Source of the DNA: Amoebidium appalachense
Lineage: Eukaryota; Protista; Ichthyosporea
Assembly (NCBI GenBank): GCA_963693365.1
Contig: CAVNZM010000002.1
Span: 10,658,328 to 10,722,327, forward strand
Reading direction: 5' to 3'
DNA length: 64,000 nt
The notes under the pieces are model-generated. The model saw only the letters and a program-made list of their open reading frames with translations. It was not told the DNA's origin and ran no database searches. The translations under genes and the position numbers were made by a program. This document shows positions 25,558 to 64,000 of this stretch, piece after piece; within the stretch, counting starts at the first letter, position 1, and every line of letters begins with the position of its first letter.

Positions 25558-25634
25558 ACGGCCCTTTGGGGGTTCGGCACGCGGTTCTGTATATTCTTTT
25601 CTCGTGGCTTCCTGCCACGTGCCCTTGATTAAAT

Positions 25635-32783: not shown

Positions 32784-33014
32784 GATGGTTGCAAATAAGA
32801 AAAGAGGGAAGAAGAAGAAGCGAAGAAAGTAGGCAAGCGTGACCTCAAGTTTCCTGCAGCGAAAGTGTGGCGGAAAAAAAAAAACAGGCTCCACGTGTAC
32901 TGCGAACCTTCACGGTTGCCTGCTCGGTTTTATTCCCTCGGTGGGTAGATTTCTGCTGGGCATCATCTGAATCATTATCTGAAAAAGGAAATTTTAATTA
33001 AAATCTAATGAATT

Positions 33015-35896: not shown

Positions 35897-36128
35897 GGGG
35901 ACCACCACCCACCCCACATGAACCTTTGACGATTGATGACGACGATGAGGTGCCAGACCCACAGGGTCTTTTCCTGGGGACCACCACCCACCCCACATGA
36001 ACCTTTGACGATCGATGACGACGATGAGGTGCCAGACCCACAGGGTCTTTTCCTGGGGACCACCACCCACCCCACATGAACCTTTGACGATCGATGACGA
36101 CGACGAGGTGCCAGACCCACAGGGTCTT
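35897..36128. repeat. 79-bp tandem repeat x3
   Basis: GGGGACCACCACCC starts at 35897, 35976 and 36055. Confidence 0.9.
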
Positions 36129-36730
36129 GCCTCCATACTTTATTTACCTTAACAGGACAAAGAGCCGGTACCCACCTATGGGTGCTAAACATGCACATGA
36201 TCATTCATGTGCTATAAGAGCAACACAGAAACGAAACACGGAAACAACAGCAGCCATAGGACAAAGAGCCCCAGACCCACAGGGTCTTGCCTCCATACTT
36301 TATTTACCTTAACAGGACAAAGAGCCGGTACCCACCTATGGGTGCTAAACATGCACATGATCATTCATGTGCTATAGGAGCAACACAGAAACGAAACACG
36401 GAAACAACAGCAGCCATAGGACAAAGAGCCCCATGTACACCCCAGACCCACAGGGTCTTGCCTCCATACTTTATTTACCTTAACAGGACAAAGAGCCGGT
36501 ACCCACCTATGGGTGCTAAACATGCACATGATCATTCATGTGCTATAAGAGCAACACAGAAACGAAACATGGAAACAACAGCAGCCATAGGACAAAGAGC
36601 CCCAGACCCACAGGGTCTTGCCTCGGAGTCCATACTTTATTTACCTTAACAGGACAAAGAGCCGGTACCCACCTATGAAACGAAAAACGGAAACAACAGC
36701 AGCCATAGGACAAAGAGCCGGTACCCACCT
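36111..36730. repeat. ~160-bp tandem repeat x~3.7
   Basis: CCAGACCCACAGGGTCTTGCCTC units start near 36111, 36271, 36442 and 36602. Confidence 0.9.
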
Positions 36731-37301
36731 CTAGATGATAACGTAGCCTTATAGCTGCTGATGACTTCATCATCATGGGCCAACCTTGGCAAAACCTGTA
36801 AAGGAACTCGAGCTAAGAATTAGCTCATCCTACTTGCGAGAAGTGGGGGGAGGGGGGGGGGGGGGGACTGAGGGGGCTGACTGAGAGTGGCAAAAAAAGA
36901 GTCGACAGAACCAACCTCAAACATAGTAAGGACGGAAACCCGGACCAGAACTTATGAAGTCTAGAGAAGCAGAAAATAGCTTGAACGATCGGTGGAGGGG
37001 ATGATAGCTATAGTGCTAACAGCAAAAGTAGTGCCCACAGTCGCTGGTTCATGAACGTGAAAGGCAACGTGCATCTGCAGCCAGCAGACACACGCACACG
37101 CACGCACACACACACTACACACACACACACACAGACACAGACACAGACATAATCACAGGACGGACACAGACCAGACAGACAAACGCCATATGCACAAAAG
37201 CAGGCAACACAAAACTAACCTTCAAAGGGCCTTTCAGCCGTTAGGCGAAGAAGCTGCAGCATGCAGCATGGTCGAAACCATTCAGCACGGTGGCTGCGCG
37301 A

Positions 37302-38372: not shown

Positions 38373-38487
38373 CCCACCCACCACCACCTTACCAATATTG
38401 TAGGTGTACACTGCCCCCACATCCCCAATTGTGTGCTGAATATCTCGTGCTAGGAAACCAATAACGTGAAAGTAACACATGCCGCAT

Positions 38488-41400
38488 GTGGGTAGTTATT
38501 GAAACAACCATTAATGTCTAGGTAACATACTATGTACATATACTATGCTACAAGGGGGGTTCTATACGAGCTACAACGTTGTGTTTTTTTCGTGTGACCC
38601 TCGTACTCCAGGGGCACATTCACCATCCCCCCCATAAACTTTGTGGTAAAGGTCTCGTGCTAGAAGCTGTTCTGTGGGTAGTTATTGAAAAAACGAATAA
38701 TGTCTAGGTAACACATGTACATATACTATGCTACAAGGGGGGTTCTATTCGAGCTACAATGTTGTGTTTTTTTTCATGTGACCCTCGTACTCCAGAGGCA
38801 CATTTACCATCCCCCCCATAAAGTGTGTGGTAAATCTCTCGTGCTAGAGGCTGTTCTGTGGGTAGTTATTGAAAAAACCAATAATGTCTAGGTAACACAT
38901 GTACATACACTATGCTACAAGGGGGGTTCTATACGAGCTACAACGTTGTGTTTTTTTCGTGTGACCCTTGTACTCCAGGGGCACATTCACCATCCCCCCC
39001 ATAAACTTTGTGGTAAAGGTCTCGTGCTAGAAGCTGTTCTGTGGGTAGTTATTGAAAAAACCAATAATGTCTCGGTAACACATGTACATATACTATGCTA
39101 CAAGGGGGGTTCTATTCGAGCTACAATGTTGTGCTTTTTTCGTGTGACCCTCGTACTCCAGAGGCACATTCCCCATCCCCCCCATAAACTTTGTGGTAAA
39201 TGTCTCGTGCTAGAAGCTGTTCTGTGGGTAGTTATTGAAAAAACCAATAATGTCTAGGTAACACATGGACATATACTATGCTACAAGGGGGGTCTATTCG
39301 AGCTACAACATTGTGTTTTTTTCGTGTGACCCTCGTACTCCAGGGGCACATTCACCATCCCCCCCATAAACGTTTTGGTAAATTTCTCGTGCTAGAGGCT
39401 GTTCTGTGCGTAGTTATTGAAAAAACCAATTATTAAATGTCTAGGTAACACATGGACATATATTATGCTACAAGGGAGGTTCTATACGAGCTACAACGTT
39501 GTGTTTTTTTCGTGTGACCCTCGTACTCCAGGGGCACATTCTCCATCCCCCCCATAAACTTTGTGGTAAAGTTCTCGTGCTAGAAGCTGTTCTGTGGGTA
39601 GTTATTGAAAAATCCAATAATGTCTGGGTAACACATGTACATATAGTACTATGCTAAAAGGGGGGTTCTATATGAGCTACAACGTTGTGTTTTTTTCGTG
39701 TGCCCCTCGTGCTCCAGGGACACATTCACCATCCCCCCCATAAACTTTGTGGTAAATTTCTCGTGCTAGAAGCTGTTCTGTGGGTAGTTATTGAAAAAAC
39801 CAATAATGTCTAGGTAACATACTATGTACATATACTATGCTAAAAGGGGGGTTCTATATGAGCTACAACGTTGTGTTTTTTTCGTGTGACCCTCGTGCTC
39901 CAGGGGCACATTCTTCATCCCCCCCATAAACTTTGTGGTAAATTTCTCGTGCTAGAAGCTGTTCTGTGGGTAGTTATTGAAAAAACCAATAATGTCTAGG
40001 TAACATTGCTACAAGGGGGGTTCTATACGAGCTACAACGTTGTGTTTTTTTCGTGTGACCCTCGTACTCCAGGGGCACATTCTCCATCCCCCCCATAAAC
40101 TTTGTGGTAAAGTTCTCGTGCTAGAAGCTGTTCTGTGGGTAGTTATTGAAAAAACGAATAATGTCTAGGTAACACATGTACATATACTATGCTACAAGGG
40201 GGGTTCTATTCGAGCTACAATGTTGTGTTTTATTCGTGTGACCCTCGTACTTCAGGGGCACATTCACCATCCCCCCTATAAACTTTGTGGTAAATCTCTC
40301 GTGCTAGAGGCTGTTCTGTGGGTAGTTATTGAAAAACCAATAATGTCTACGTAACATATGTACATATAATATGCTACAAGGGGGGTTCTATACGAGCTAC
40401 AACGTTGTGTTTTTTTCGTGTGACCCTTGTACTCCAAGGGCACATTCACCATCCCCCCCATAAACGTTGTGGTAAAGGGCTCGTGCTAGAAGCTGTTCTG
40501 TGGGTAGTTATTGAAAAAACCAATAATGTCTAGGTAACACATGTACATACACTATGCTACAAGGGGGGTTCTATTCGAGCTACAATGTTGTGTTTTTTTC
40601 GTGTGACCCTCGTACTCCAGAGGCACATTCACCATCCCCCCATAAACTCTGTGGTAAATCTCTCGTGCTAGAGGCTGTTCTGTGGGTAGTTATTGAAAGA
40701 CCAATAATGTCTAGGTAACATATGTACATATACTATGCTACAAGGGGGGTTCTATACGAGCTACAACGTTGTGTTTTTTTCGTGTGACCCTCGTACTCCA
40801 GGGGCACATTCACCATCCCCCCCATAAACGTTGTGGTAAAGGTCTCGTGCTAGAAGCTGTTCTGTGGGTAGTTATTGAAAAAACCAATAATGTCTAGGTA
40901 ACACGTGTACATATACTATGCTACAAGGGGGGTTCTATTCGAGCTACAATGTTGTGTTTTTTTTCGTGTGACCCTCGTGCTCCAGGGGCACATTCTCCAT
41001 CCCCCCCATAAACTTTGTGGTAAATTTCTCGTGCTAGAAGCTGTTCTGTGGGTAGTTATTGAAAGACCAATAATGTGTAGGTAACATATGTACATATACT
41101 ATGCTACAAGGGGGGTTCTATACGAGCTACAACGTTGTGTTTTTTTCGTGTGACCCTCGTACTCCAGGGGCACATTCACCATCCCCCCATAAACTTTGTG
41201 GTAAAGGTCTCGTGCTAGAAGCTGTTCTGTGGGTAGTTATTGAAAAAACCAATAATGTCTAGGTAACACATGTACATATACTAGGCTACAAGGGGGGTTC
41301 TATTCGAGCTACAATGTTGTGTTTTTTTCGTGTGACCCTCGTACTCCAGGGGCACATTTACCATCCCCCCCATAAAGTGTGTGGTAAATCTCTCGTGCTA

Positions 41401-41596
41401 GAGGCTGTTCTGTGGGTAGTTATTGAAAAACCAATAATGTCTAGGTAACATATGTACAAATACTATGCTACAAGGGGGGTTCTATACGAGCTACAACGTT
41501 GTGTTTTTTTCGTGTGACCCTCGTACTCCAGGGGCATATTCACCATCCCCGCCATAAACTTTGTGGTAAATGTCTCGTGCTAGAAGCTGTTCTGTG
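38488..41596. repeat. ~183-bp satellite x17
   Basis: Seventeen copies of GTGGGTAGTTATTGAAAAAACC...GCTGTTCT counted by eye. Confidence 0.95.
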
Positions 41597-41956: not shown

Positions 41957-44787
41957 ATGTATGTGTGTGTGTATGTGCTCAGTTGAGAGGGAAGGGGAGG
42001 GGGGGGGGGTTGCACCGTGTGTGTGCATGTGTGCATGTTAATGCAAAGTACACACGGGGGAGTCCGTAGAATGTTTTTCCCGACGGAGGGGGGGGGACGT
42101 GATCGGGGAATTTCAGTGTTTTCTCCAGTCCCGCATGCAACATATAAGCCTTCGTATTCAAAAAACCCAAACACCCTTTCCCTTAGCAAGTAGCTGACTT
42201 TCTCACCACCAAACGTAGATGGGGGTGGGGGGGAGTGCCCACGTTCACCCACACATCCCCACGGGCATTTGCCGGCCCATCAGGGGGGGTCCAAGAGGGG
42301 GGGGGGGGGGGTCATTCTATAGTGTGCATGTGTTGTGGAGGGAAAAAACGTGCAAAAACCCTCAGAATGGACGGATTTCGATGCAGTTTTTTTTTGTTTT
42401 CCCAATGGGAAGGTATGTTAATGCAAAGTACACACGGGGGAGTCCGTAGGATTTTTTCCCGACGGAGGGGGGAACGTGATCGGGGAATTTCAAGACGAAA
42501 AATCTAAAATCTCAATATCTGCCAAAACCCTCCGAATGGACGGGGGGAGGGGGGGGGGGGAGGGGGGAGGGGGGGGGGGGGGGGGAGAGGCATCAAACGT
42601 GATGGCTCACACACCCCTACTGAAATTTGCTGGCCCCATAGGTGGGGTCCATGGGGGGGGGGGTCATTGTATAGTGTGCTTTTTTTGTGGGGGGGGGGGG
42701 GTTTACACATTGGGTGGTTATTTCCAAGGCAATGGCAACGTCCCCCCCCCCCCCCCCCCTCTCCCCGGCGGGCCCGCCGCTGCGCTGCGGAAGATTACTC
42801 TGATCCACTCGAATCCTTTTGTCCCAAACACAGGCTTGCAGGATAAGAAAGGCCTGCACCTTGCAAAGCTGGATGCCTATTTTGCATCAGAAGGGAACTT
42901 CGACCCCAGCCCCAGGCTTGAAGGACGTGGCAATTGCCTAAAGTTCCTGCCGCTACAGCTGCAGTTGTTCCTAGCGGGCTTAACGCCTGCTGAAGCACGG
43001 GGGACTCCACGGGGGGATCTGCCTCTTCCAGTGAAAAGAAAAATATTCCCATACAACAGCTGCTATATTTGACTGCAAGAAGGTGAGGAGGGAGTGTATC
43101 TTAGGGTGGTGGGGTGTAAGGAATTTTATGGTCGGCGATCCGCACTGCAGTTTCAGGTATGGTTGACGTATTTATTCAGGACGTACTGACAGAATAGTAA
43201 GTATAGCTCTAGTATAGCGTGATGATATTCTTAGGAGCTTCCTAAGGTATGCGATATATATCTTTGCGTTTTTTTTGCGTTTTTTGTGCATTTTTTTATT
43301 TTTTTATTTTTTAATGTGTTTATTTAGGGTAAATTCCACGCACCGGCCACTTGCTCCGCGCAGGCATTGCACCGTTTGCCAAGGTATCTCGCCTAATTTA
43401 TAGGTACCTTAAATATTATTATAACTAAAACTTCTGTATTTGGCAGTTGAATGCCCCAGTTTTACTTACATAGACGGATCATGATTGTAATGATAACAGT
43501 GCTTCGGATTCTGTTTTGCACCCCTCCAGTAAATCTTTGTTTCCATTAACTATCAACGCCTCGCACGCACCTGCGCGACGCCTTCATGTTTCATGTTTCA
43601 ATAAAAGCGTACCTTGTGACGCCTTCATTGTGAATGAAGTGTGAAATTCGATCCTAAAAAACAACCAATCAAAAACGTTGGAGTGATCTATCCCACAATC
43701 AAATGCGCAATCCCTTTTCCGGCCGTATATATTGAGCTAACTCGCTCATCATGGATCGTGGTCCTGGGTAATCGGCATTGACCGGGTGGTGAAGACGCCG
43801 TGGCTGAGGATAGCGATACGTGCTTTGCTTTTCTATCCCAGGGAACACTTAAAGATCATCTAAATCGATCCCATTAAACCCTTAAAGAGGTCCTAAAGTA
43901 ATCCTAACACAATACCTAATTGCAACTCTGAACATCTTTAAGCTACTCCAAATAGGGCGTGAAGATCGCAGAAAGGTATCACCAATACTTGCCTAAGATT
44001 GCGTTAGCATATCACATGCACAGACATGGCCTGTCTTGAAGATATAATTTGGATGGCCAATAGCGCTACAAAAGAACTCTCCAAAGATCTCCTTAGATGA
44101 TCCACTGCCTAGCTGTGATATATCCTGACGACATCCTAACGCAATCAGTTCGTTTCGCAAATGTTGCATGGCCATACGGGATTAAGAGAGGATAAAGATT
44201 GTACTAAGATCTCCGCAGTACATCTTTAACATATCTCTACGCCCATCCCACGAGCGCCTTCAGTTGTGTCAACTTACTTGCGTGTATAATGCATCTTACA
44301 CCCATCTATATAATATGTATCGGTATCTCTCATAGACATCCTGTAGAATGAGTGCAGACGTCTTTAGGACATCTGTTAACTACCCCATGTTCCGGGATGA
44401 TAAAAATATGTCCTCAATCCGTCCAAGATATCTTTAAGACGTAAACGACATGAAAACCCGAAAGACGTCTTTCATATATCCCGTATGCATCCGCAACCCA
44501 TCAGACAATTTAATGGGGGGTTAAGGACATCCGGACTTGTGCTGATGGGTATAAGTGCACTTCCAGGTGTCTGTATGACATCTTGTCAGACGACTTTACT
44601 ACTTCTTGCAGATGTCCACTGTCTTGAATCCGTGCCAGACGTATTTAATATATATGGGATGTGTTTCAGACGCCTTGCCATCCTGAAATTCCGGGTTATC
44701 CTAAACCCGTCCTAAGCTATCTTTTAGATATATTAACGACGATAGGACGTCCTAAAGTCGTACAAGACAGGTTTCGGATGGGGGGTG

Positions 44788-45643
44788 ATCTTTGCTGATG
44801 CTCCCGTGCCCCCCGCCGCGCCATCCGCACCCGGGGAGGTTTCCCCGGGGCTGCATATCGGCCCTGACCTGGACCTACCTGCCCTGCCCGCGCCCCCCAT
44901 TACAGGTGAGAACACTGGCGACATTCAGCCGGGCACACTGCCGCTTCCCCCGCGGATGTGCTGGCAGATTTGCGCCAATCGTTTCGTCGACCTGTATAAG
45001 TTCACCCCCGCAGCCCTCCCGCGCATGGCCGACGACGGCAGCATCGAGACTTTTTGCCATGACAAACCCATTCCCCTGCGTTCACTCGTCATTTGGATCC
45101 AAGCTTTGTCCCATTACATGGCCGCCAAGCACCACCTCGACCTTCCCACGGACAAGGACACACTTTGGACTCAGCACATCACTCGCCTCAGCACCCGATA
45201 CCCGTGGGCCCAGCTCCACAACTATGACGTGTACGCCCGTACCGTTGCCCACCAGCAGGGTCGGGCTCCGATCGAGTGTCCCAACCTGCTCGCCCAACTC
45301 CACCAGGATCTCCTCCTGCCACCCACCTCTGCTCATCCCGGACGCATGTCAGCGCTGTGGCTTCCCCGACCACCCCAGCGCGGCCTGCCCCATGTACCCC
45401 AAGCCCGGCTGTGGTCTTGACGGCTTCAAGCCGCCCCACAAGCCCGGCGAGGGAACCCCCAACCGCCCTGGCCCGCAAACCGGCCCGGCAAAACCGGCCC
45501 GACCCGTGGATCTACCCGCGACGCACTGCAGGAATTTCCACATTAACGGTCGGTCCTGCGCTAAGCAGCCCTGCCCCTTCTCCCACGTGTGCCCGCTCTG
45601 CTCTGGCACACACCCCCGCAAAGACTGCAAGCACAATGCCTAG
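44788..45643 (+). pseudogene. Family 3 gag, C-terminal part, with zinc fingers (one frameshift near 45330)
   Basis: FVDLYKF, WIQALSHYM, YPWAQLHNYD; CQRCGFPDHPSAAC knuckle; CRNFH..C..C..HVCPLCSGTHPRKDC end typical of DIRS/Ngaro gag. Confidence 0.82.
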
Positions 45644-45933
45644 TCTACGCGCACACCCACACACACAGCTAGAACATAGGGGCTAGGAGCTAGGACACAC
45701 GGGTACAAGGAAACGGAGCTCGGGAGAACGGGCCAATAGGGCTGAGTACAAAATTTCGCAGGCCAACTACGGCGCCCGCGCGCGCCAAGAATAAATGTCC
45801 CTACACAAAGACGTTATTCTGGCCACTGCACAAAATTTTACTCCCCCCCATCCCACGAGCCTCCCCCCCCCTTACACTCACCTAGCACTCCCTCCCCCCC
45901 TTCTTCTACCTCTGTGTCCGCCCACACCCCCGC

Positions 45934-47690
45934 GTGCTCGGGCATCCCCTGCACAGGGCCCCGCTGCCCTCCCTGCAAACCCTCCCTCGGGCCCAGCTGC
46001 CCTACTCTAACCCCCCCGGGGCCCTGCTGCCCCCCCCCCCCCCCCCCTCCCCTCCCCCCCCCCTCCCCCCCCCTCCCCCCCCCCCCCCCCCCCCCCCGCT
46101 GCCGGGATCTCCCCGAGGGTGCCCCACCCTTGCTAACCACACCTTCCCCCGAGGCTCAGACCCGGAGGCTCGCCCGCTGCCCCAGCACCACATTGACACC
46201 TCCCGCCTCCGGGAGCTGCTGGCCTCCTACCCAGACCAATCATTCGCCGCGCAGCTCCTCCACGATGTCGAGTTCGGTGTCGACATCGGCTATCGCGGCC
46301 CTTCCACCTCTCGGGTGGGCCCCAACCTACCCACCACCCCGGAGGCAGCTGCCGCTATCACGGCGGATATTGCCAAAGAAGTCGCCCTCGGCCACCTGCG
46401 CGGCCCCCTCTCCCTGGCCCAATTCTTTGCCGAATTTCCGGTCCACCGTTCCTCCCCCATCGGCGCCGTTACTAAAAAAGGGAACCCCCCCAAGTACCGT
46501 CACATCCACCACCTCTCCTGGCCCCGGGGCAGCAGTGTCAATGACAGCATCACCTACCCCGACGAACTTCAGTACATTCAAGCCCGGGACGTCACCCAGC
46601 TCATTCTCGACGCAGGCCCCGGTTGCTACATGGCCGTGGCAGACGTGCAAGCTGCCTTCCGGCACATGCCCATCCGACCAGAAGACCACCACTTAATGGC
46701 ATTCAAATGGCAGGGGCATTTTTACGTTGACACCAGACTGCCCGTCGGCCTAAAATCTAGCCCAGCCACCTGGGAACGGATCGCGGCCACCCTCCAGTGG
46801 CTGGCACACCAGCACGGTGTTACCCTCGTCCGCCACTACGTAGACGACTGGATTATAGTCGCCCCCACCCAAGAGTAGTGCCAACGTCACCTATCCACCT
46901 TCCTGCAACTCTGCCGAGAGCTGCACATTGCCATCTCCGAAGACAAGATGCAGGGCCCGGCTACCCGTATCGTCTTCATCGGTATCGAATTCGACTCCAT
47001 CGCCATGGAGGCACGGATCCCTGCTTCCAAACTCTCGGACCTACTCGACCTCACTTCCCACCCAAAACCCACCATCACCATTCGGGACCTGCAATCCCTC
47101 CTCAGCAAACTCACCTGGTGTGCCCAGCTGGTTCCCCCCGGGAGGGCCTTCTCCCAGCGCCTATGGGCCCTTCTCCGGACCCACCCACACCTTGCCGGCC
47201 ACCACCACATACGGCTGACTGCTGCCGCCCAGGCCGACATAGCCTAATGGCACCAGTTCCTCACATCATGGAATGGGGTGCACCTCATCACACCCCCCAC
47301 ATACACCACCCTGGCCACCGATGCTGCCGGATCAGTGGGTCTAGGGGGCCACTGGCTCGACCAATGGTTTTTCATGCCCTGGTCCCCCTCCACCCAAGCC
47401 CTCTATGCTCATGAGGGTAAACTCGGTTCTTCCGTCATCGAACTCCTGGCCATCGCAGCCGCCGTGGCCCTCTGGGCCCCCTCCTGGTCCACCCACCATG
47501 TCCGTATTTTATGCGACAACACGGGTGCTGTGTCTGACCTGCACTCCCGGTCTTCCCCCCACCCCGTGATGGCCAAACCTATTCGGTTCATCACCCGCAT
47601 GGAAATGCAATACCAATTTACGTTATAGGCATCCTACCTACCGGGACCCCTCAACCATCTAGCCGATTGCCATTTCTCGTAACCAACTTC
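45934..47690 (+). pseudogene. Family 3 RT/RNase H with three in-frame stops
   Basis: SPIGAVTKK, KYRHIHHLSWP, SVND, ADVQAAFRHMPI, LPVGLKSSP, YVDD, FIGIEFD, TDAAG, ELLAI, CDN, LPGPLNHLAD. Stops at 46876, 47245 and 47626. Confidence 0.92.
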
Positions 47691-48868
47691 CCCGGGCCCG
47701 ACGACTCCGACCTTCCCTGCAACCGGAGCCCTGCCCCTTCCCCTCCTGGGTCCACGAGTTCCTATCCCTTCCCCTGGGCTAACCCCCCCCCCCCCCCCCC
47801 CCCAGATCTCCCCTTCCGGAGCAACGCTGGCAGATTGGCCCCCCACTTTGCTCCGGCCGAGCTGCTTCGAGCCACCACTACCCTGCAGGAATGCCAGGCC
47901 CTGAGTCTCAACCTCGACTCTCGGGCCTTTTACTCCCGGGTGCAAAAAGTGTTCATCGATTTTTGTGTGGCATCTCGGCTGCAATCCTCCTCCGGGTCCT
48001 CCCTCCCGGCCTCCCCACACACCGTGCAGCTTTTTCTCGCCTGGTATGCCCAACGAGGGGTACAGGCCTCTTCCTTGGCCGGCTACAATTCGGCCATCAC
48101 CAGACTCCACCTCGACATGGGCCTCCCTGCTCCCTTCCCCCACGACAAGTCTTTGGCCTGGTTCCTCCGAGGTGTGGGCAGATGGCAGCTTTCTCACAAC
48201 ATCCGACCCCGATCATCCACCACGGAGCCCCTCCTGCCCTCCCACCTCAGCCAACTCCATGGCCAGTGCCCCACCAAGGCCTCCTCGGCCAATCTCCGGC
48301 TATGGACGGCCCTCATCGTCGGTTTCTGTGGTCTCCTCCGTTCGGGGGAATTTACCTCCAAGACCCTGACTTCCTTCGACCCGTCCCGTCACGTTAAACG
48401 GAAGGACGTGACCTTCAGCCACACCCCCACCGGTACTTTGTCCCATGCCACCCATTTGCCAACCTCCAAGACGGATGTACAGGCCCGAGGTGTCAACGTC
48501 ACTCTAGCTGCCCTGCCCCTCACCCACTTCTCCCCAGCCCATCTCCTCAGGCAGTTCCTGGATACAACGCCCGGTCAACCCGACGACCCCCTGTTCAGTC
48601 TCGGTGGCATTCCCTACACCAAGGGTGCTTTCTCTGCCGACTTCCGTGCCCTCCTCAGCTCCCGGGCAGGCCTCTCACCCGCTCCCGGTTTGCCGGCCAC
48701 AGCCTCCGAATAGGGGGGGCCACAGCCCTGGCTGAGGCCGGAGTCGACGACTCCCGGATCAAACAACTCGGCAGATGGTCCTCCGACTGTTTCCTGATCT
48801 ATACTCGACTTCGCCCGGCCTCCATTGCTGCCACTACCACACGTGTATTCGCCTCTATTCCTAAGTGA
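47667..48868 (+). pseudogene. Family 3 tyrosine recombinase (frameshift near 48690)
   Basis: GLLRSGEF and SKTD in the 348-aa frame; GHSLRIGGAT...LGRWSSDCFLIYTR in the next frame; TGA at 48866-48868. Confidence 0.92.
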
Positions 48869-49361
48869 AACCTTTGGAGCAAGCATACTGCTCTCGTGCC
48901 GTGGTTTACAACCATTGCAGGTTCACTTTCGTCCAAGGGGATGTCCCCCTAGAGGCAACACACGTCCCGGAGTAGTTTTTCATAGAGGTTTTATTTGTGG
49001 AATTTATTGACATAAATATTTTTCTGGGTAAACACGTAGGATGGGTGTCCGATACTCAACATAACCATGTAGGCTTCGTTTCGTGTTTTAGCAGTTCGCG
49101 TTCGGCTGCCCGCATACGGGCACCTATTAGCCGATCAAAAACGTCAGATTCCACAGATCACGAGACCGAGTTTGATTGGCTCAGGATCAGATTTCACATA
49201 ACACTAGATCGATTTTGATTGCCTCAGATCGGTAGCCTTAGGTATATAAGCACGACAGTTTTTTAGCAGATCAGCAAGCAACAGACACATCTTCTGTGTT
49301 TAGCACCTACAGCTTTACAGCTATATGTTCTTTTCACCCACCCACCTACACCCAACACTTG

Positions 49362-49633
<272 letters not shown>

Positions 49634-49919
49634 TAATTTACACTGGGGCGCCGGCAGGACAAAAGCACCATTCCAAGTAAAACTAACTACAGGTCAGACA
49701 AGAATATATTTTGGCAGTAATAAACTAGATATCCTATTATTCTTACTATATAGTATAGCACTGGGATTCTAGTGATACGTCTTATACTCTTTGTCCACAT
49801 TTGCAGGAGTTATAAATGCGCAAATCTCACTCTCCTGCAGGTTGTATTCATTTGCATTTGCGCAGTAACTCAGACAGGCGGAGGTATCCACACCACACTC
49901 TGCCGCGTTGATATCAGAC

Positions 49920-49950
<31 letters not shown>

Positions 49951-50333
49951 AAAAAGAAAAAGAAAGGAAGGAAGGAAGGAAGGAAGGAAGAAGAAAGCGG
50001 TGATGTAATACCCCTGATCAATGACACGTCTTTTATACACATGTATATGTACATCTGACAATCACCGCTCGAAACGATACAGTATGCACAACCTTGAATA
50101 CATGTATCTGACGTTTCCTTCAACCTCCGTACCTGACCGCCTACCACACTCAAACTGTTATTTTTCTGCCCCAACCCTCCCTAAAGCTAACCTTTTCACC
50201 TACGCCTGAGCTGTGCCCCGCCACCCCGTCATTATTCCGGCCAGTGACGTCACCAACAGCCAATGGGGTGTCCTTGTTGTTGCTCTGTGGAGGCGGCTCG
50301 ACCTGCCTGTTGCTTTGAGGTGAACTGTTGGCA

Positions 50334-51300
50334 TCACTGCCAATTTTTTGGGTCGCATAGGGGATGATGTGGTTGGGAATGTTCGTTGGCAGCGGTATGC
50401 GCAACACCATCGGGGCCTTCGTTTTTGGTTGCTATCTTGTGGTTGAGGATGGTTGGCGGCAGAGGGAGTTCGTATCCGTAATCGGTCGGGCAGAAGTTTG
50501 TTGGGGGCAGAGGGCCGCGTGGTTCGTTTTGCTGCGCCCATACAGCCAATACTTCTCGATCGTATGCCCGGCCTCCCTCGGTGATTGATGCAAAATAACC
50601 TATATAATTCTGCTGCGACTTGCCTAAAACAGTTTTATCCAATCGGCGCGCTTGGTAGGGTTTGGATAAATGGTGTCCGCATGTAATGAAGGCGACACCT
50701 ATGCAACCCTCCTGCTCTGCTTCTTACTCTACTCATGTAATCACTACGAAGAAAAAAGTTTAGGCGCACCAGTTTCTCTCGTTTTCTAATGTCCAGAGCA
50801 CGTATCACATCGTCCCTTGCAAGTGCCGCTTCCACTTCTGTCGCGTAGCTCCCGCCGTAATGAAAAACACCATCCTTCGAATGCGACACTTGCCAAGGCT
50901 TTTGGATGTAATCAATATTGTAGGTTACGCCCTTGTACACTGACGATTTCGTCTTTGTTGCTTTCTTTGCCCACCACTCTTCTGCCCAATCCAAATCATC
51001 GGCTGTCGGTTTGAATTTACGCAAATTCCCGAGGTTAACATTTTTAGAATCCAGGTATTGGTGAGCCAACACCCCCTTCTGCACCAACAAATCAATGGCC
51101 AAATCCCGCAGCCGTGCAGCCGTGCGACTGTTTTCGTAGAAACCGACATACATGCTGCCTCCTATCTTTGTACACCACTTGCCCGCTTTACCATTCCAAT
51201 ATACTCCCCGGTAGTGTTGGACTGTGTCTTTCACATTTCGGGTAGCAAATGAGCGAACGGGCCCAAAGAGTGTCTGCCAGCCGCACGACCTTCCCTGCAT
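50334..51300 (-). CDS. Protein with three AP2-like DNA-binding domains (frame change near 50730)
   Basis: YRGVYWNGKAGKW...YVGFY..AARLRD; SSVYKGV...PW...GSYATEVEAALARD...LNF; and in the next frame IGV...PYQAR...YIGYFAS..GGRAYDR...TNF. Confidence 0.8.
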
Positions 51301-51911
51301 AGAGTTTTACATCAGAGATGAGAAAATGTACAGATGTTTATTCTCTTTATTTTAGACTTTAAAAAGGCATCGTAAGTGCACTTGCGGCAGCTGAGCTTTG
51401 CGATGATCATTGCCTACCCCCCCCCCCCCCCCCCCTCCCCGCCCTTCCCCTGGCCCCCTCTCTCCTTGTAAGCCCTCCCACAAACTTCACATTCGCACAA
51501 ACGGCACACCTTAGGCTGTATACCAACCCCGACACATTTAACTATAAAAATCCCCAATTAACAAACATCCACCGTTGGGTGATTGACAATGTGTTGGTGT
51601 GGCGTGTCAATATTCAGTCTGTGTTATGTGGTTGCTGGGGTTTGAATGCTATTGGCGTCACCTTTCATTCATTCATTCTTTCTTCTTTGGTTTTGGGTTT
51701 GGATGGTGGCACGCATACCTTTCTCTTTTTCCCTTTCTTTCCCCCGCCTTTTATATTTATTGATTTTCTTGCGAGTTTGTGTGCTTATGCATTTGCACAC
51801 TGGCTCTAGTGTATGTGTGTGTTTCAAAATGTGTGATTTTGTCTGTGCGTGTGTGTGCGCCTCTCTCTCTCTCTCTCTCAAATCTCTCTCTCTCTCTCTC
51901 TATCCCTCTCC

Positions 51912-52007
<96 letters not shown>

Positions 52008-52174
52008 GGGGGAGGAGGCGGAGGGGGGGGAAGCGGAAGAAGGGAGGTAAAGCACCAACTACACATACCGTTGCCACCATTCCAAAGGGAGACAACCGGC
52101 CAGGAGCAGTCTGACCGTTCTGAATGCCGAACACAGCATGTTGAGGCCCTGTGCCGACCAGGAGTGAGGCTGTA

Positions 52175-52205
<31 letters not shown>

Positions 52206-52440
52206 CACCCCAATAACCACCGCACGTACGTGGAACAACAATGTGCGAGCCGTTTGTCAACCTTGTCTGAAACCTAAAATACCCTCTTGTGTTATGTGTC
52301 TGCTCTTCTGCTTGGTGTGAATTCAGACATGCCCGTGTTTGTGTACACACAGGCACGGAACATACCAATTTAGCCCCATTGTTCACTGTGCATACATAAT
52401 GTACCCTCAATCGAGCTGATCAGAAGGGAAAACAAATGTG

Positions 52441-52482
<42 letters not shown>

Positions 52483-52835
52483 TGACTGTGTGTGTGCGCG
52501 CGTGCATGTGTGTGCGTGCGTGTGTGCACGCGCGTGTGTGTCTGTGTATGTGTGGGTGTGTGTGTGTAGGCAGGAGAGGAGGGGCAGGGAGAGAAAGCAA
52601 GCCCTAACGCGTGTGCACTGGCGACCATGTATGTATTCGTGTAGTACACATACATATATTCCCTTTGCCCCACGAACTCCTTGAATCTTTTATAACTTTC
52701 GTCCAGCCCTCCCCCCCCTCCCCTCCCACACACACACCAAAAAAAAAAAAAAAAAAAAAAAAAAATAACCCCTGGGGCCCTGCCCCATCCTGTTCCCCAT
52801 TAACACTTTAAACAGGGCCGTCACAGAGGTGGACA

Positions 52836-52868
<33 letters not shown>

Positions 52869-53888
52869 AGGGGGGGGGAGGGGGGAGCAGCAGGTAAACG
52901 GGCTTCCGAAGAGAGACGGGGCAGACAAAGAACGGTACATCTTCGACACCTTTTCTCGATACAGCGGAGCCCCGAGATGTATACTCGAGCCTTCGGAAAC
53001 AAAATGGGCCCAAAGGTTGAAGTTGAAGCTGCCATGCCAAACAGAGACACATCTATCACACCACAACCACATACCTCTCCCTTGGGCCAGGGCATGTAGT
53101 GACCGTGTGCCCACCGACAGGACGGGGTTGAAAGTGACGTAGCCCATGCAAGTGGATTGGTTGCTGGTGACTGCAGCAAACCGTACAGGCTGTAGGTGTA
53201 CAAGTGAGCAAAGTAAGTAAAGTAAGTCAAGTAAGTCAAGTAAGTAAAGTAAGTTGAGTAAACCAACTAGGAACCACAGAGTGTGAGTGCATGGATGAGG
53301 GTGGTGCCTTCTGCACAGGCACACACGAATGTCCTGTCAGAGATGTGCGAGCATAGACCAGCATGAGAGCAACTGCAATTTTGTTCACGTTGCCTTTTCC
53401 ATGAGGATGGAGCCATGCAGCCATTCTCTCCAAACAAGTTTCTGCCCAGGAGGGAGGCTGGATATGAGTAATGAAGTGGGAGAAGCGGGGTGCGGGCGGA
53501 AACGTAAGGTGTGTGTGTGTCTGGGTCTCTCTCTCTCTCTCTCCCTCCCTCCCCCCTCTCCCTCTCTCTTTCACCCTCTCTCTCTCTCTCTCTCTCTCAC
53601 TCTCTCTCTCCCTCCCTCCCTCCCTCTCTCTCTCTCCCTCCCCTCTCCCTCTCTTTCGCCCCCTCCCTCTCTCTCACACACACACACACTCCCCCCCCCC
53701 CCCCCCTCTTTCTCTCTCTCTCTTCCCCTCACTCCCATTTCTTTTTTTAGGGGCGTGGGGTGTGGGGGGAGGCGGAAAAGGGGGAGGGAGGCAGGCTCTA
53801 CCTAACTCTCTCTCTCTCTGTCCCCCCCCCCCCCCCCTCCCTTTCTTTTTTTAGGGGGTGTGCGGTGGGGGGGGGGGAGGGGGGAAGG

Positions 53889-53941
<53 letters not shown>

Positions 53942-53993
53942 GCTCTTTCTCTCTATCTTCTTCTTATTCTTCTTCTTCTTCTCCTTTTTTTCT

Positions 53994-54035
<42 letters not shown>

Positions 54036-54038
54036 GGT

Positions 54039-54081
<43 letters not shown>

Positions 54082-54967
54082 GGGGGGGGGGGGGGGGATG
54101 GATACCTCTCCCACCGAGGTTGCTGGTTTAGTTCCCGAGACAGCCACTCGAACCAACCTCCTGGTCCACATCCTCCCAGACGACAGACAAACAAGCAAAC
54201 AAAGAGTATCTGCAAAAAAGAACAACATATTAGTCACAGACCAAAAGCCTGCCAAAAGTTGCCTTTTATGTCTGAAAGCAAGTGAGACACCAAGCCATAT
54301 GTGCTGCACGTTGAAATAATTTCCACGGTGTTGCATTATTCCTCGTAACCTTCTCCTCAGGGTGATACTTATTTCGTCTGGGACCCCCCTTCCCCCCTCC
54401 CCTCCCCTCCCCCCCCTCCTCCCCCCCTCCCCACCCCTCCCTTCCCTCTCGATCCCGACTCTTTCCCTACCGGCACAACACTAGGTACCTACAAGGCTCT
54501 TCAACATCATGCACCCCCCCCCCCCCCCCCCCCACCCACCCACCCACCCACCCACGCCCTCCTCCTCCCCTCCCCCCTCCCCCAGTCCCTGCCTACCAAA
54601 TCTACCCGCGCCTGCCATCAACGGGCTTGGTTCTGCCTCCACCAGCAAAAAGCAAAATAGCGTGTTCGGACAAGAGATAACACACGAACAACAAGTTCCC
54701 AGGGTTAACTAAAATAGGGCTGAAAGATTCTAGCTTTTTTGTGAGAATGGAAATGGAACAAAGAGTTGTGCGGGCAACATGATGGCAGAGGCAAAGAAAT
54801 CATGCATGCATTGTGTTTGTGGGTGGAAGGAGCGGAAAAAAGCGGGAGTTGGAGAAAGGAGCGGAGGGGTAGGGGAGAGAGAGGACGGAGGGTGTGCAAG
54901 GGGGGGGGGGAGGGGGAGGAGGAGGGGGGGGGGGGGGGGGAGGGGGGGAGGGAGGGGGGGGGGGGAG

Positions 54968-55007
<40 letters not shown>

Positions 55008-55284
55008 CAGGCTCTTACGGTTCAGTATGTCGAAGCTCACACATGTGGTCACTTGTACAGTACTCTGCTAGCTCAACACAAATAATGCGCTGGTTTTCCG
55101 GGCGGCCTTGGCCATGTTTGGGGTTCGGTGGTGATGGCTTATCTAGCGTCATTCCTATTGGTAGAAGAAAAATGGCGGGAAAATGTGACTCGTGAGCCCT
55201 CCTCACGTCTGCACGGCGGCGAACTTCGAAAGGGCTGGTTCGATCGACTGCAGACAGACCCGTTTGCTTTGCGCCGCCCGGGTA

Positions 55285-59081
<3,797 letters not shown>

Positions 59082-59283
59082 TACAGTACAGAACGGAAAC
59101 ATGCATATTCCAAACGCGTGATCGGTTTGTTTGGCTTGCATATGATAGTTTCAGTTTGAAGGCCAGCTGTAGAAAAACACGGGTTTCAGCAAGCAGGCAA
59201 CGAGAATGATGCATACACAAATACTATGTGACACACAGAATCCGAAGAGAAAGAAAGGTAGAGGCAGGCAGAGGTGTGTGTGT

Positions 59284-59335
<52 letters not shown>

Positions 59336-59411
59336 GTGAGAGAGAGAAATCCTCGGGAGGGGGGAGGGGGAGAGAGAGAGAGAGAGAGAGAGGGAGAAAG
59401 GGGAAGAGAGA

Positions 59412-59452
<41 letters not shown>

Positions 59453-59654
59453 GGGAGAGAGAGAGGGCATGCCTAGTACTCGAGGGTTACCATATCTGTC
59501 GGCGTGTACACACACATGCACATACACACAAACACTCGAATGCACACACACGCTTGTACTGTACACATACATAATAACTTTGAAAGATTTCAAAAACTAT
59601 ATAGGTGGTCCGGTTCCCTGGGAATGAGGAGGAGGAGGAGGATCCGGAAGAAAA

Positions 59655-59704
<50 letters not shown>

Positions 59705-60519
59705 GAGGCAGCGAAATCGATTATCGATCACTATCGATACTAGCTGCATAAGCGGGGCCAATGTTTTCGTCGGGACACCAACAAAAGGCTGCAGCAGATT
59801 TAATAATGATAATGTTATTATTAATTGGTAGGTGCCGCGAACGTGCCGCGAACGGCTTAACCCACATTGATCCACACATACGTGCTGTTTTTCACGGGGC
59901 GAAGACTTCCCCCGTTTTTTGGGCACAAGGACCTCACGGATCAATAATTGATGACTGGGCGCTTGCCGTGGTTTACAACCATTGCAGGTTCACTTTCGTC
60001 CAAGGGGATGTTCCCCTAGAGGCAACACACGTCCCGGAGTAGTTTTTCATAGAAATACACAAGGAGAAAAAAAGCACCTTTAAAACGCAAACTCAAAAAC
60101 CAACTTTTGACAGACATTAAATATATGTTTGTTTTGTTGTTTCTTCTTTTGCTACCGTGTGACAGCCACAAAGGAAATGTGAAGGTCACCTGATGTGGCG
60201 TACACTCGCATGAGCGCGGTAAAACATTTCCAGCTTGGCTCGAAACCAGGGTTGACCAGTTCACCAGTTGCGGGTCGTCCGAAGCCTATGTGTGGGCGGC
60301 TTAGCCTGGAATCTGGAATCGCTCCGGCAGCGCCAAAGAGATGAGTGTAGCACTGCGACTTGCCACGGCCGTCAGACTCTTCCTTAACATTTTGTTGTAG
60401 GTGCCTAATTTGATGTAGAACCTGGACCCTGCACATGTTGTGGTGACGGTGGTTGCAGTAACACTGCAACGCACAAACCAGCCAGTGGCAGCCACTCACA
60501 ACAAAAAGTCAAAAGCAGC

Positions 60520-60700
60520 TGCAGGTTTTTTGTGCCAGTAGCCGGCAAACCAAATACTCGGTGCAGGTTTTACATGCCAGTAGCCGGTAAACCAAGTACT
60601 CGGTGCAGGTTTTACATGCCAGTAGCCGGTAAACCAAATACTCGGTGCAGGTTTTACATGCCAGTAGCCGGTAAACCAAATACTCGATACAGGTTTTTGT
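60520..60700. repeat. 42-bp tandem repeat x4
   Basis: TGCAGGTTTTACATGCCAGTAGCCGGTAAACCAAATACTCGG units. Confidence 0.9.
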
Positions 60701-61382
60701 TGACTAGAGGTTAGATCTTTATATGGTGAGGTTTCCTGAATCAGCCAATAAAAAACCTGCAGCATTTGACGACTAGAATTCTTGGGAGGCCGCTTCACCG
60801 AATGTTGCCAGAGTCAAGCTGTTATTTTTCTTGTTTCACCATCATCATCAACGGGGTTTAAGTTGCTGGCTGTGGGGCTAGGTTCTCCTCGCATAAAAAG
60901 CTAAAGAATCAAGCGGGGCGAAAAGAAAAGGCAGTATGACCATTTACTTTATATGGTGGCCATGCTGTATTAATAATTTATTTGGCTGATTAGACAAGCC
61001 TGCTGCTGCCTGAACAACTAACTACAGGGCCGAGGCAATCAGTGCCTTGATGTGGGCCAACACGCAATGGCCCTGGCCTACCCATTGTCATGTTGTGTGC
61101 CTTGACACAACATGATGGCGGGTGGCCAATCGACCAACCCCAACACAAGAAAACCCATGAATAGCACACATTGGCTGTAGTATGGTGTGCCCAGTGTATT
61201 CATGTTTTTTGTGAACATACGTGTGCCCCCAGGGGCGTATGTAATGGCAGTTTCAGTGGATAGGCCATACACTCCAGTAAGGCGATGCTTTGCCTGTGGC
61301 ACCTTGTCTTATTGTATAACATACGAGCAAAAACCAATGGCATATCTTGAGTGCCAGGCCCAAGTACAGGCCCACAGCATGC

Positions 61383-61660
61383 CTAGCGCCTGTACTGGGC
61401 CTTTCTGATGCCCGTCAGCTTGCCCCGCTCTCTGTCCAATTCGGCCTCCAGCTGCAGGATGCGCACCTGCACCCTCACTCGTCAGAAGCCAACTCCCCCA
61501 CCTCCCAAACACACATGGATCCCCCCTCCCCCCACACACACCACCCCCACCACCACACACACACTGACAACACACGTGGATTTCCATTTTTCTTTCTCCC
61601 CCCTTCCCCCCCCCCCCCCCCCCTCTTCCCCACACCCTCGAACACAAACATCAATCTCCA

Positions 61661-61691
<31 letters not shown>

Positions 61692-62991
61692 ACACACACA
61701 CCACTCTATCCACCAATCCCTCCCAAAGTTTACCCTCCCCCCTCTCCCCCCCTCCCACACACACATCCCACAGGCACACACATCGATCTCTCCCTCACCC
61801 CCCCCCCCACCCACCCACCAACACACATCCCTCCCCATCGCCCAAAACACATTAATTTCCATCTCTCCCTCTCCTCCCCCTACCACACACACACACACCT
61901 GGGCCTACATCCCCCCCCTCCCCCCCCCCCCAACCAACCAACCAAACCACAAACACACACACCTGGACCTACATCTCCCCCCCGCCCCCCCCTTCCCCCC
62001 CACCCTCCACACCCACACACCTGGATCTCCATCTCCAGGCGCTTGCTCTGCAGTGCACTCATGTTGAATGATGCTGCTCCAGATCCCCGCCGTCCAGCCC
62101 CAGCCCCCTCCTCCTTCTGCTGCCATTCTGCCCTCCCACCCTCAGCCCCTGCCTGCCCCCCCCCCCCCCCCCCCCCCCCCCCTGCCGGTGTGCGCCTACC
62201 CGCACAGGCCAGCTGGTGGGCGTCCTGGGCCACCTTGACCAGGGCCCGTGCGCCCTCGCTCACTTCCTTGCTGGCGCGCTCCAGTGCCTGCTGCTCAGCA
62301 CTGGCCTCCCCAGGCGCCCCCTTGACCCGTGACGCTGCCACCCGCCCATTCAGCCAAACCCTCCCACCCATCTGCCCCCCACATACCTCGTGCAGCCCCC
62401 ACCCACATGCACAAGACGCCATGCTTCAAATGCCAACGCTAAGGTCGATAACAGTTGAGAGTAATGAGCATGCCTTGGTGGTGTGGTGTGGACCCCACTC
62501 TCCATGGCACACTAGTGAAATTGTGTATTAGTTACATTTTCTTCCACGTGTAGGTACGTCACCCGTACCCGCTGCGTAGGAACACATAAATCCAAAACAC
62601 GTCATGAAGCAATCTGAACTCAAACAGCAACCGACAGCACAGCCCAAGCATGCTAGCCCCACACCTCAGACCATTGTTGCGCACCTGTGACCAGCTGGGC
62701 CACACTGGCTGCCACCTCCCTCGAGGCCACGACCAGCTGCTCGACCCTGCCCTCGGGCACAGGCCCAGCAGCATGCAGCGCCCTCAGGGCCTCCTCGGTG
62801 CTGTCGACCAGCACCGTGGCCCCCCAGCCCACGGCCTTGGCCGCACTGACCAGGCCCTCCCCCCACCGGTGGTCCTTCTTGTAGAATGACCGCTCGGTCC
62901 CCTTCTCCTCCCCGCCTCCCGTCTGCTCCCTAGTCAGCCCCCTTTCCTCCCTCCCTCCCCCCTCTCCCCCCCCCTCCCCTCCCCCCCCCCC

Positions 62992-63025
<34 letters not shown>

Positions 63026-63179
63026 CCCCACCTGCATCTGCACGGCAGCGGCCGCAGTTACGAGGGCATGGATGTGGTCCATCAGCCGCCCACAGCCCTC
63101 CAGCAGGCCCTCGTCCATGTCCCAGCCCACCCCTGCAGCCCCCAACACTCACTGCCCACCCCGGCAGCCACTAACACTC

Positions 63180-63215
<36 letters not shown>

Positions 63216-64000
63216 AACACACACACACACACACACACCACCACCGCATATCCCCCCCCCCCCCCCCCCCCCCAACACTCACACCACCGCCGCATATCCC
63301 CCCCAACCCACCGGTCTGGGCCTGCTTTGCCGTCTCCAGCATGGCCTCGATCCTGCGGGCGGCCTGGCTGACTGCCGTGGCCGTGCTGTCCATCTCACGC
63401 ACCACCGTGCGCACCTGGCACCAGAGTCAACCCCACATGCTACTACTGTACACCCACCACCACCACGCATGCACGCACACGCACGCACACACGCACACGC
63501 ACACACGCACGCACGCACGCACGCACGCACACACGCACGCACGCACGCACACACACACACACACACACCTGCTGCTGCTGCCTCTGCTGGGCGCCCAGGT
63601 GTTCGGTCGTGCTGGCCTGCAGCTCCTGTGGCCCCCAGTCAGCAGCCAGCCCTGGGCCCGACACCACCAGGCTGGACTTCGGCCCCCAGCCTAGGCACAG
63701 CACACACACACACGTCATGTCTGCACGTGCATAGACTTGGAAATGCAATGATGCAATGTCTGGTGCACACAACGCTTGCAATGCATCGACGCTTCACCTG
63801 TGCCTGTGTGCATGCACACACAAGTGCCGGTGAACACAAGCACGTGCCTGCAGGATTGCCGTCACGGCCTCTGCCTGGTCCTTGAGCCGCTGCCTGATGT
63901 CTGCCCCCCATGTTAGCCCACACGTGCATCCGCCCATGTTAGCCCACACGTATGGTGCGTGTCACGATCCCACTAACACAAATGCCCGCGCAACCAAAAA
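61383..64000 (-). CDS. 3' exons of a HIP1/HIP1R/Sla2-type endocytic adaptor (I/LWEQ actin-binding domain); 5' part outside the window
   Basis: GT-AG exons at about 63570-63690, 63312-63414, 63032-63132, 62685-62922, 62200-62334, 62021-62150 and 61383-61466. They translate to EMDSTATAVSQAARRIEAML, FYKKDHRWGEGLVSAAKAVGWGATVLV, QLVVASREVAASVAQLVTASRVK and KRLEMEIQVRILQLEAELDRERGKLTGIRKAQY. Confidence 0.88.

Follow-up and report, generated by a model that had tools for sequence, protein, structure and literature searches.

AP2 domains read nucleic acid through their three-stranded sheet. In plants, the tandem-AP2 factors carry one or two repeats, are nuclear and bind DNA. The same AP2 fold is found in HNH-AP2 endonucleases and in the multi-AP2 proteins of phages and giant viruses, and it resembles the arm-binding domains of integrases. 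In organelles, the PPR, OPR and HPR proteins form expanded families that bind RNA.

In Toxoplasma, four AP2 proteins with long targeting signals, mtAP2-1 to -4, are described as binding rRNA in the mitoribosome (PMC11652630). They are encoded by four conserved genes, the AP2 domain can be swapped between species, and the lineage has a fragmented mitochondrial genome, as in Amoebidium. According to PMC7027106, the mitochondrial genome of Amoebidium measures over 200 kb, is divided into several hundred linear chromosomes and has no fewer than 21 introns of group I and 2 of group II; a second paper (PMC2518934) describes terminal and oriented repeats on each chromosome and proposes that they control transcription.

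The window (the whole stretch of 64,000 nucleotides analysed here) contains a gene with three AP2 repeats. Its family is like the Toxoplasma proteins in having AP2 repeats behind a long N-terminal targeting signal, here predicted, and differs in being an expanded family with rapidly varying sheets. The plant factors WRINKLED1 (7WQ5), AtERF1 (1GCC) and TEM1 have the same fold and are the best structural and profile matches, but the Amoebidium proteins differ from them in the number of repeats (three), in their linkers and in a presequence-like N-terminus. In contrast with the viral multi-AP2 and HNH-AP2 proteins, the Amoebidium gene has introns, lacks an HNH domain and has no relative in the viral contigs searched. 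The best explanation, which we regard as fairly probable, is that the window holds a frameshifted copy of a spliced, multi-copy Amoebidium gene encoding a mitochondrially imported triple-AP2 reader of nucleic acid, likely RNA.

Exon structure, AP2 repeats and host of the gene

The initial annotation had described an open reading frame with three AP2-like repeats, the third reached only after a frame change. This reading frame is exon 4 of a four-exon gene on the minus strand (54171-50334). Exons 1-3 were located by mapping the N-terminus of an Amoebidium parasiticum transcript protein, P0002, upstream of the reading frame with tblastn. The introns are 916, 926 and 774 nt long with GT-AG borders, and the frame is open up to the break in exon 4, whose stop codon is TGA at 50336-50334. 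The features of the gene are as follows; the borders of the repeats are approximate.

54106-54171, minus strand: coding exon 1, with the ATG at 54171 and the start of the predicted presequence (tblastn of P0002, 19/22 identical; GT donor at 54105)
53075-53189, minus strand: coding exon 2, predicted presequence with an R-S-L-H cleavage-like motif (38/40 identical to P0002; AG/GT borders)
52069-52148, minus strand: coding exon 3, predicted presequence (P0002 mapping; run X11 has a contig whose loose end at 51295 is made up of its letters)
50334-51294, minus strand: coding exon 4, which encodes the three AP2 repeats with their linkers and a Pro-rich tail and is interrupted by an extra base (P0002 mapping)
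51085-51219, minus strand: AP2 repeat 1 (Pfam AP2 E 0.009; non-Amoebidium repeat HMM domain E 8e-12; model)
50794-50943, minus strand: AP2 repeat 2, followed by the family linker of the L-x-x-L-N-F-x4-D-Y type (alignment; linker HMM; repeat HMM domain E 3e-6)
50544-50708, minus strand: AP2 repeat 3, in a second frame (model; repeat HMM domain E 0.0025)
50724: one extra base, place approximate (absent in contigs of all four runs; alignment with the intact P0002 and P0003)

Several lines of evidence identify the repeats as AP2. An HMM built from 33 non-Amoebidium repeats only was scanned against 1329 six-frame segments of the window; it recovered all three repeats and had no other match at E < 0.7 among these segments. 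The alignment contains the motif series Y-x-G-V, W-x-A, G-x-Y/F and E-A-A-x-x-Y/R-D. In an AlphaFold2 model of P0002 (82% identical to the window copy), computed from an AP2-rich alignment of 55 sequences, the three units each consist of a three-stranded sheet packed on one helix; the pLDDT of the block is mostly 80-98, with a pTM of 0.61. A Foldseek search of the PDB with this model gave only 2 matches at E <= 0.001, both of them WRINKLED1 chains (WRI1 E 8e-5), with TEM1 and AtERF1 next at weaker E-values (AtERF1 probability 0.98), and all 5 matches of a profile search against the PDB at E <= 10 are plant proteins. Against the BFVD, Foldseek returned 16 matches at E <= 0.001, the best from Klosneuvirus, and AP2 look-alikes were seen in the Atlas. 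No HNH domain was matched in P0001-P0004, and the P0002 model is filled by the three AP2 units and their linkers.

The Pfam AP2 model (PF00847) matches the window copy only weakly and only in repeat 1 (E 0.009, 15.7-16.7 bits), below the gathering cut-off of 33.3 bits and with repeats 2 and 3 unmatched. Among the paralogs, P0004 reaches 38.6 bits, above the cut-off, P0003 19.4 bits, and P0002 has no match at E 0.01. The AP2 identity of the exon-4 repeats stands on the agreement between the repeat HMM, the P0004 score and the AlphaFold2 and Foldseek results; the earlier reading of three such repeats was thus correct.

The frame change is a one-base insertion in the window copy, either real or an assembly error. 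Repeats 1 and 2 lie in the frame 50635-51306 and repeat 3 in the overlapping frame 50334-50723, while P0002 and P0003 are colinear across the break. The base at 50724 is left out at a depth of 32.4 of 32.4 in run X11, 98.3 of 98.3 in X5, 18.3 of 24.4 in X2 and 867 of 1320 in X1; the uncounted depth in X1 and X2 leaves room for both origins. An intron or a programmed shift was rejected, as the transcript proteins are colinear and the contigs lack one base. The initial annotation had proposed reading RNA across 50730, and X11, which is RNA by guess only, lacks the extra base there. The first frame ends at a stop at 50637-50635 and would give a two-repeat protein; the window copy would therefore make at most this truncated product.

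The best homologs place the gene in its host. In a first search, 2127 candidates were compared with the read-through protein; 2 proved homologous, both belonging to the EukProt set of A. parasiticum. That set also supplied the third full-length paralog (P0004) and a partial one (P0014), which came to light when 1.84 billion representatives were searched with HMMER. The three full-length transcript proteins P0002, P0003 and P0004 are 82%, 61% and about 30% identical to the window copy, respectively. Contigs of two organisms reach up to 100% identity with the AP2 stretch. On the strength of the full-length A. parasiticum relatives and the contig matches, the gene is most likely a host gene of Amoebidium, which belongs to the ichthyosporean opisthokonts. 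The suspicion that the host was not a plant was accordingly well founded; a plant or algal host, to which the Myb/SANT gene at 31.7-32.9 kb had at first pointed, was rejected.

The gene is multi-copy: 42-107 contigs per run match it, with identities from under 90% to 100%, and in the DNA runs X1 and X5 these contigs include intron 3. The copies diverge abruptly near 50217-50245. DNA cover is absent at 50040-50177 in X1, X2 and X5; as records can be filtered out, this gap was not used. A processed retrocopy was considered and rejected, since introns are present.

One X11 contig leaves exon 4 at 51295 and continues with the letters of exon 3, as expected of an exon 3-exon 4 splice. X11 has no cover in 20 bins over the tyrosine recombinase (YR) gene of the surrounding retroelement, although the DNA runs reach great depth there; the AP2 contigs of X11 are therefore most plausibly transcripts, and the AP2 family is taken to be transcribed and spliced.

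Relatives of the family and variation in the sheets

Relatives outside Amoebidium were sought in proteins and contigs. The HMMER search found 438 representatives, 150 of them among the matches listed, and most are generic multi-AP2 proteins. About a dozen among the matches listed have the three-repeat layout together with the linker after repeat 2; they include Symbiodinium natans CAE7233264 and Polarella glacialis CAE8738725 and CAE8594119. These dinoflagellate proteins and the metagenomic P0057 and P0041 resemble the Amoebidium proteins in their three repeats with similar spacing and in a helix-plus-LNF-x4-DY/F linker after repeat 2, and often have a presequence-like N-terminus. These relatives are only 23-33% identical to P0002 and, unlike the Amoebidium paralogs, show no strong excess of change in the sheets.

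A linker-only HMM built from 10 dinoflagellate-type sequences was used to rank 166 proteins: after three close kin came P0057, P0041 and all four Amoebidium-type proteins (8.6-26.4 bits), and every other protein of the 166 scored at most 5.1 bits. In the reverse search, with an Amoebidium-type linker HMM, P0057, P0041 and seven dinoflagellate-type proteins came next; scores were low in both directions. An HMM of the whole dinoflagellate core placed P0002 no higher than 8th, in the midst of generic multi-AP2 proteins. In a tree built from 185 individual repeats, with one repeat per non-family protein and leaving out the duplicates of two clusters and three near-identical relatives, Amoebidium repeats 1 and 3 group by position, with repeat 3 next to P0041 (0.915), and repeat 2 of P0004 is split from the others.

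Taken at the level of sequence, the Amoebidium and dinoflagellate-type triple-AP2 proteins likely share ancestry. The earlier suggestion of horizontal acquisition is plausible in that the linker is common to the dinoflagellate proteins, but the repeat tree names no donor. Amoebidium is also reported to have YR genes whose only matches are in dinoflagellates or red algae (PMC11244446).

Further searches added no members. None of 211 pattern matches in metagenome contigs, nor of 3 in viral contigs, was confirmed as a relative of the AP2 protein; a search for shorter proteins found 0 related among 395 candidates; a word-based search with an alignment of 15 sequences gave 5 matches without a new family member; and a search of the Atlas returned only generic AP2 clusters.

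On the dinoflagellate side, P0009/P0163, P0053, P0087, P0098, P0108, P0129 and P0131 form an apparently undescribed triple-AP2 group with presequence-like N-termini. P0163 carries two triple-AP2 units one after the other, and the N-terminus of P0098 is more hydrophobic and could serve for plastid targeting. Literature on AP2 proteins and mitochondrial targeting in dinoflagellates, outside subscription papers, yielded no description of the Amoebidium family.

Within Amoebidium, the differences between copies are concentrated in the sheets. Comparison of the window copy with P0002 shows 63 of 96 sheet positions identical (66%), as against 141 of 151 elsewhere (93%; Fisher p 3e-8). The same trend is seen between P0002 and P0003 (43/98 in the sheets, 128/158 elsewhere) and between the window copy and P0003 (41/97 and 119/151); in the comparisons with the window copy, seven positions around the break were left out. 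As a control, the 28 pairs among 8 dinoflagellate-type relatives, most of them more distant than the Amoebidium pairs, have a median sheet gap of 0.03 and a maximum of 0.13.

At the level of bases, the 40 best-supported of 190 differences were considered. Four of them were set aside (two at the break, one in an intron and one in the 3' flank); of the 36 coding differences that remain, which are unpolarised, 31 change an amino acid (p 0.08 against 0.75); in the two sheets represented among these best 40 of 190, 21 of 22 do so (p 0.015). The excess of amino-acid-changing differences is suggestive, and the decay of pseudogene copies could add to it. The pattern of variable sheets on a conserved frame suggests a modular recognition scaffold.

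The N-terminal extension and a possible mitochondrial role

A net-positive, disordered N-terminus that is nearly free of acidic residues and carries cleavage motifs is of the mitochondrial presequence type. All three complete Amoebidium paralogs have a single acidic residue in their first 100, whereas the median of the 148 other hits is 11, a background made up of other AP2 proteins rather than of the Amoebidium proteome. Only 2 of these 148 have two or fewer, and both belong to the related triple-AP2 group. The second acidic residue occurs at 110, 114 and 142 in the complete paralogs, and at 95 or later in none of 150 others. The paralog N-termini are net positive, contain R-x-(L/F)-(S/A/H) motifs and have no hydrophobic stretch resembling a signal peptide; residues 1-110 of P0002 are unstructured in the model (pLDDT under 50). 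The hydrophobic moment is high in two paralogs (0.71 and 0.68), but that of P0004 (0.55) is near the background median of 0.49. To our knowledge, Amoebidium has no plastid. From these features we infer that the first ~110 residues of the triple-AP2 proteins are probably a cleaved mitochondrial presequence.

It is also conceivable that the proteins form a family of nuclear transcription factors similar to plant AP2/ERF or ApiAP2 proteins, with an N-terminal extension that is merely disordered. The closest solved structures are DNA-bound plant WRI1, TEM1 and AtERF1, most AP2 proteins are nuclear, and a short lysine-rich stretch precedes repeat 2. We nevertheless consider this unlikely, as each of the three complete paralogs, even the one with only about 30% identity, has the nearly acid-free extension with its cleavage-like motifs, and presequence-like N-termini also occur in several dinoflagellate-type relatives.

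In the mitochondrial reading, the protein would be imported and its presequence of ~110 residues removed. Each repeat would contact nucleic acid through its three-stranded sheet, with the helices and linkers acting as a fixed scaffold, and duplication followed by sheet change may have produced paralogs with different targets, by analogy with the PPR, OPR and HPR families. The ligand is somewhat more probably mitochondrial RNA, in which case a role in processing, intron splicing or mitoribosome assembly may be envisaged; the alternative, which we rate not far behind, is that the proteins bind the terminal repeats of the linear mitochondrial chromosomes. The preference for RNA rests on the precedent of the Toxoplasma mtAP2 proteins and of the PPR, OPR and HPR families. 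The terminal and oriented repeats are the obvious DNA target, as a candidate only.

The Amoebidium triple-AP2 proteins are not detectable orthologs of the Toxoplasma proteins. A profile search matched no mitoribosome chain at E <= 10, and in Foldseek the Toxoplasma mitoribosome chains appear only at E 0.2-0.6, none of them identified as mtAP2. A more far-reaching scenario, which we put forward tentatively and regard as rather less probable than the mitochondrial reading itself, is that Amoebidium took the triple-AP2 scaffold from a dinoflagellate-related source and turned it into a set of PPR-like mitochondrial readers with diversifying sheets, convergent with the myzozoan mtAP2 proteins, which would manage its fragmented genome or the RNAs of that genome.

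In the available parts of PMC7027106 and PMC2518934, no protein is named for maintaining or expressing the several hundred mitochondrial chromosomes, and the family is a concrete candidate. If confirmed, it would provide a second case, after Myzozoa, of mitochondrial AP2 proteins together with a fragmented genome. It would also place AP2 proteins in an opisthokont; no earlier report of such proteins in Amoebidium, ichthyosporeans or opisthokonts was found in the literature outside subscription papers such as transcription-factor surveys.

The surrounding retroelement and the rest of the window

Elements of the Ngaro form have the order A1-ORFs-B1-A2-B2 (PMC8547959, PMC9210276). The element around the AP2 gene is of this type and comprises the following parts.

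44790-45643, plus strand: remnant of a Ngaro-type gag that has lost its 5' part and is frameshifted, with a CCCH-like finger (zf-CCCH_12 E 0.038)
45886-47628, plus strand: RT and RNase H region with stops at 46876 and 47245 (RVT_1 E 8.6e-10; the RNase H part was read by eye from motifs and has no Pfam match)
47538-48868, plus strand: tyrosine recombinase ORF with an approximate start and a frameshift near 48.7 kb (Pfam matches to Phage_int_SAM_1, E 0.037, and to Phage_integrase, E 0.002)
48897-48986, plus strand: split direct repeat B1, following the YR stop (direct-repeat match, contig depth)
48987-49362, plus strand: left part of A2, its right border inferred from the start of an AG tract (depth at least that of the YR over 48987-49345)
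49363-59859, no strand assigned: ~10.5-kb microsatellite-rich host-type block with the AP2 gene and with inferred borders (the copy that has the 122-letter joint lacks it)
59860-59963, plus strand: right part of A2, its last 30 bases matched and its left border inferred (an X5 loose end before 48897 matches 59934-59963)
59964-60053, plus strand: split direct repeat B2 (89/90 identical to B1)

Like Ngaro, the element has gag, RT/RH and YR in this order on the plus strand at 44.8-48.9 kb, and B1-A2-B2 at its 3' end; it differs in that A1 is lacking, all ORFs are broken and A2 is split by host-type DNA. The name 'Ngaro-type' is assigned by architecture, and PAT elements also have split repeats. 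No match to A2 was found upstream of gag within the window, the copy being 5'-truncated, and no methyltransferase domain was matched by Pfam in the ORFs scanned. Other copies of the YR have a 2-letter gap at 48680. The segment 48987-49345 is as deep as the YR, which identifies it as A2. A 24-base stretch of repeat B had no exact match in the metagenome contigs.

The AP2 gene lies on the minus strand, antisense to the element, between the 90-bp direct repeats B1 and B2, so that its position inside a retroelement was described correctly from the start. The claim that it is borne by the element holds for this position, but not in the sense of regular cargo. The median summed depth of the YR exceeds that of the AP2 gene 205-fold in X1 and 214-fold in X5 (20 bins over the YR and 25 over the AP2 gene), and 4800 contigs match the YR region as against 94 for the AP2 gene in X1 (1520 and 107 in X5); summed contig depth does not equal copy number, and the identity cut-offs were 80 for the YR and 85 for the AP2 gene. 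One X11 contig runs from 49345 via 122 letters back into B, without the AP2 gene, a joint supported by this contig and one loose end in X5. The depth gap of ~200-fold and the A2-B joint make it likely that the AP2 gene is not regular cargo of the element family. The extra ORF of amphibian Ngaro elements (SGNH hydrolase) is a regular, sense-strand part, unlike the AP2 gene.

The initial annotation had gone further and proposed that the AP2 protein belongs to the element and serves as a DNA-binding partner of its YR. The gene does lie on the opposite strand between B1 and B2, where introns would survive retrotransposition, and AP2 resembles integrase arm-binding domains. This proposal is very improbable, however: besides the lower depth and the copy in which A2 runs straight into B, the element is defined by the identity of A1 and A2, and it is A2 that the block splits; no arm-binding domain of a tyrosine integrase is among the best 50 Foldseek matches. 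The gene has three introns and is spliced in the run where the YR has no cover, and its predicted mitochondrial-type presequence counts against a partnership, as a partner of the YR would be nuclear.

The ends of the 10.5-kb block show no terminal inverted repeat, no clear target duplication and no transposase. This also bears on the idea that the gene is cargo of some other mobile element, or part of a selfish amplification such as the Plavaka-flanked giant repeats or viral insertions, without a host function. Such a history would be in keeping with the many near-identical intron-bearing copies, their abrupt divergence near 50217-50245 and the place of the block inside a transposable element; multi-AP2 proteins occur in giant viruses, and Amoebidium is described in PMC11244446 as carrying giant repeats as well as viral insertions, of which some contain dinoflagellate-like genes. 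We think it improbable, slightly more so than a nuclear factor, since in addition to the plain block ends the gene has three introns where viral and giant-repeat genes are described there as intron-poor, the family is transcribed and spliced, and the old paralog P0004 keeps the same design.

The simplest history is that the block was duplicated at the DNA level into the A2 of an already decayed Ngaro copy. The intact joint measures 122 letters, and the two A2 pieces of the window account for 17+104 = 121 letters of it, with borders that are inferred. It is less likely, though it deserves some weight, that the AP2 locus is resident and lies between remnants of two separate Ngaro copies, one of them truncated and the other a solo A-B repeat: the Ngaro family is very abundant, the window contains scattered short pieces that resemble B of the other YR family, and solo AB repeats are described for Ngaro (PMC8547959). 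Against this reading, both pieces break within the same A2 stretch of at most 122 letters, without overlap and with lengths summing to 121 against 122. The function proposed for the protein is unaffected by the choice between insertion and two remnants, and the link of the AP2 gene to the retroelement is incidental.

Some further features of this region were observed. X11 covers the A2-B region (48897-49345) and not the YR, which suggests solo A-B repeats or element ends in host transcripts. Upstream, an AT-richer segment at 43100-44780 (GC 0.42) replaces the 5' end of the element, including the gag start and A1. Within the block, imperfect inverted repeats at 55282-55328 and 59042-59084 (83%), with a GC-rich palindrome, enclose 3.8 kb of microsatellite-rich DNA; the unit 55282-59084 is perhaps a non-autonomous DNA transposon nested in the block.

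Elsewhere in the window, positions 1-31500 hold a second YR retroelement family, unrelated to the first, whose copies form a scrambled cluster in both orientations and at 92-99% identity. This family has gag, RT and YR in the arrangement A1-ORFs-B1-A2-B2, with A of about 500 bp and an RT without a Pfam match, and the cluster includes a 6.08-kb tandem duplication at 99.9% (16331-22428 and 22412-28507). It resembles the intron-poor, YR-rich 'giant repeats' of Amoebidium described in PMC11244446. A Myb/SANT-like trihelix-type gene in two frames lies at 31716-32929 on the minus strand (Pfam Myb_DNA-bind_4 E 0.0095) and is possibly Harbinger-related. Tandem repeats are found at 38487-41596 (a 183-bp unit in about 17 copies, 91-96% identical), and local tandem duplications at 35894-36741 and 57472-57667 (79-bp and about 165-bp units; an exact 98-bp pair). 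At 60500-64000, on the minus strand, exon-like GC-rich pieces between poly-C and CA tracts appear to belong to a spliced host gene whose product would be Ala-rich and helical, with an 84-bp tandem repeat at 60520-60697.
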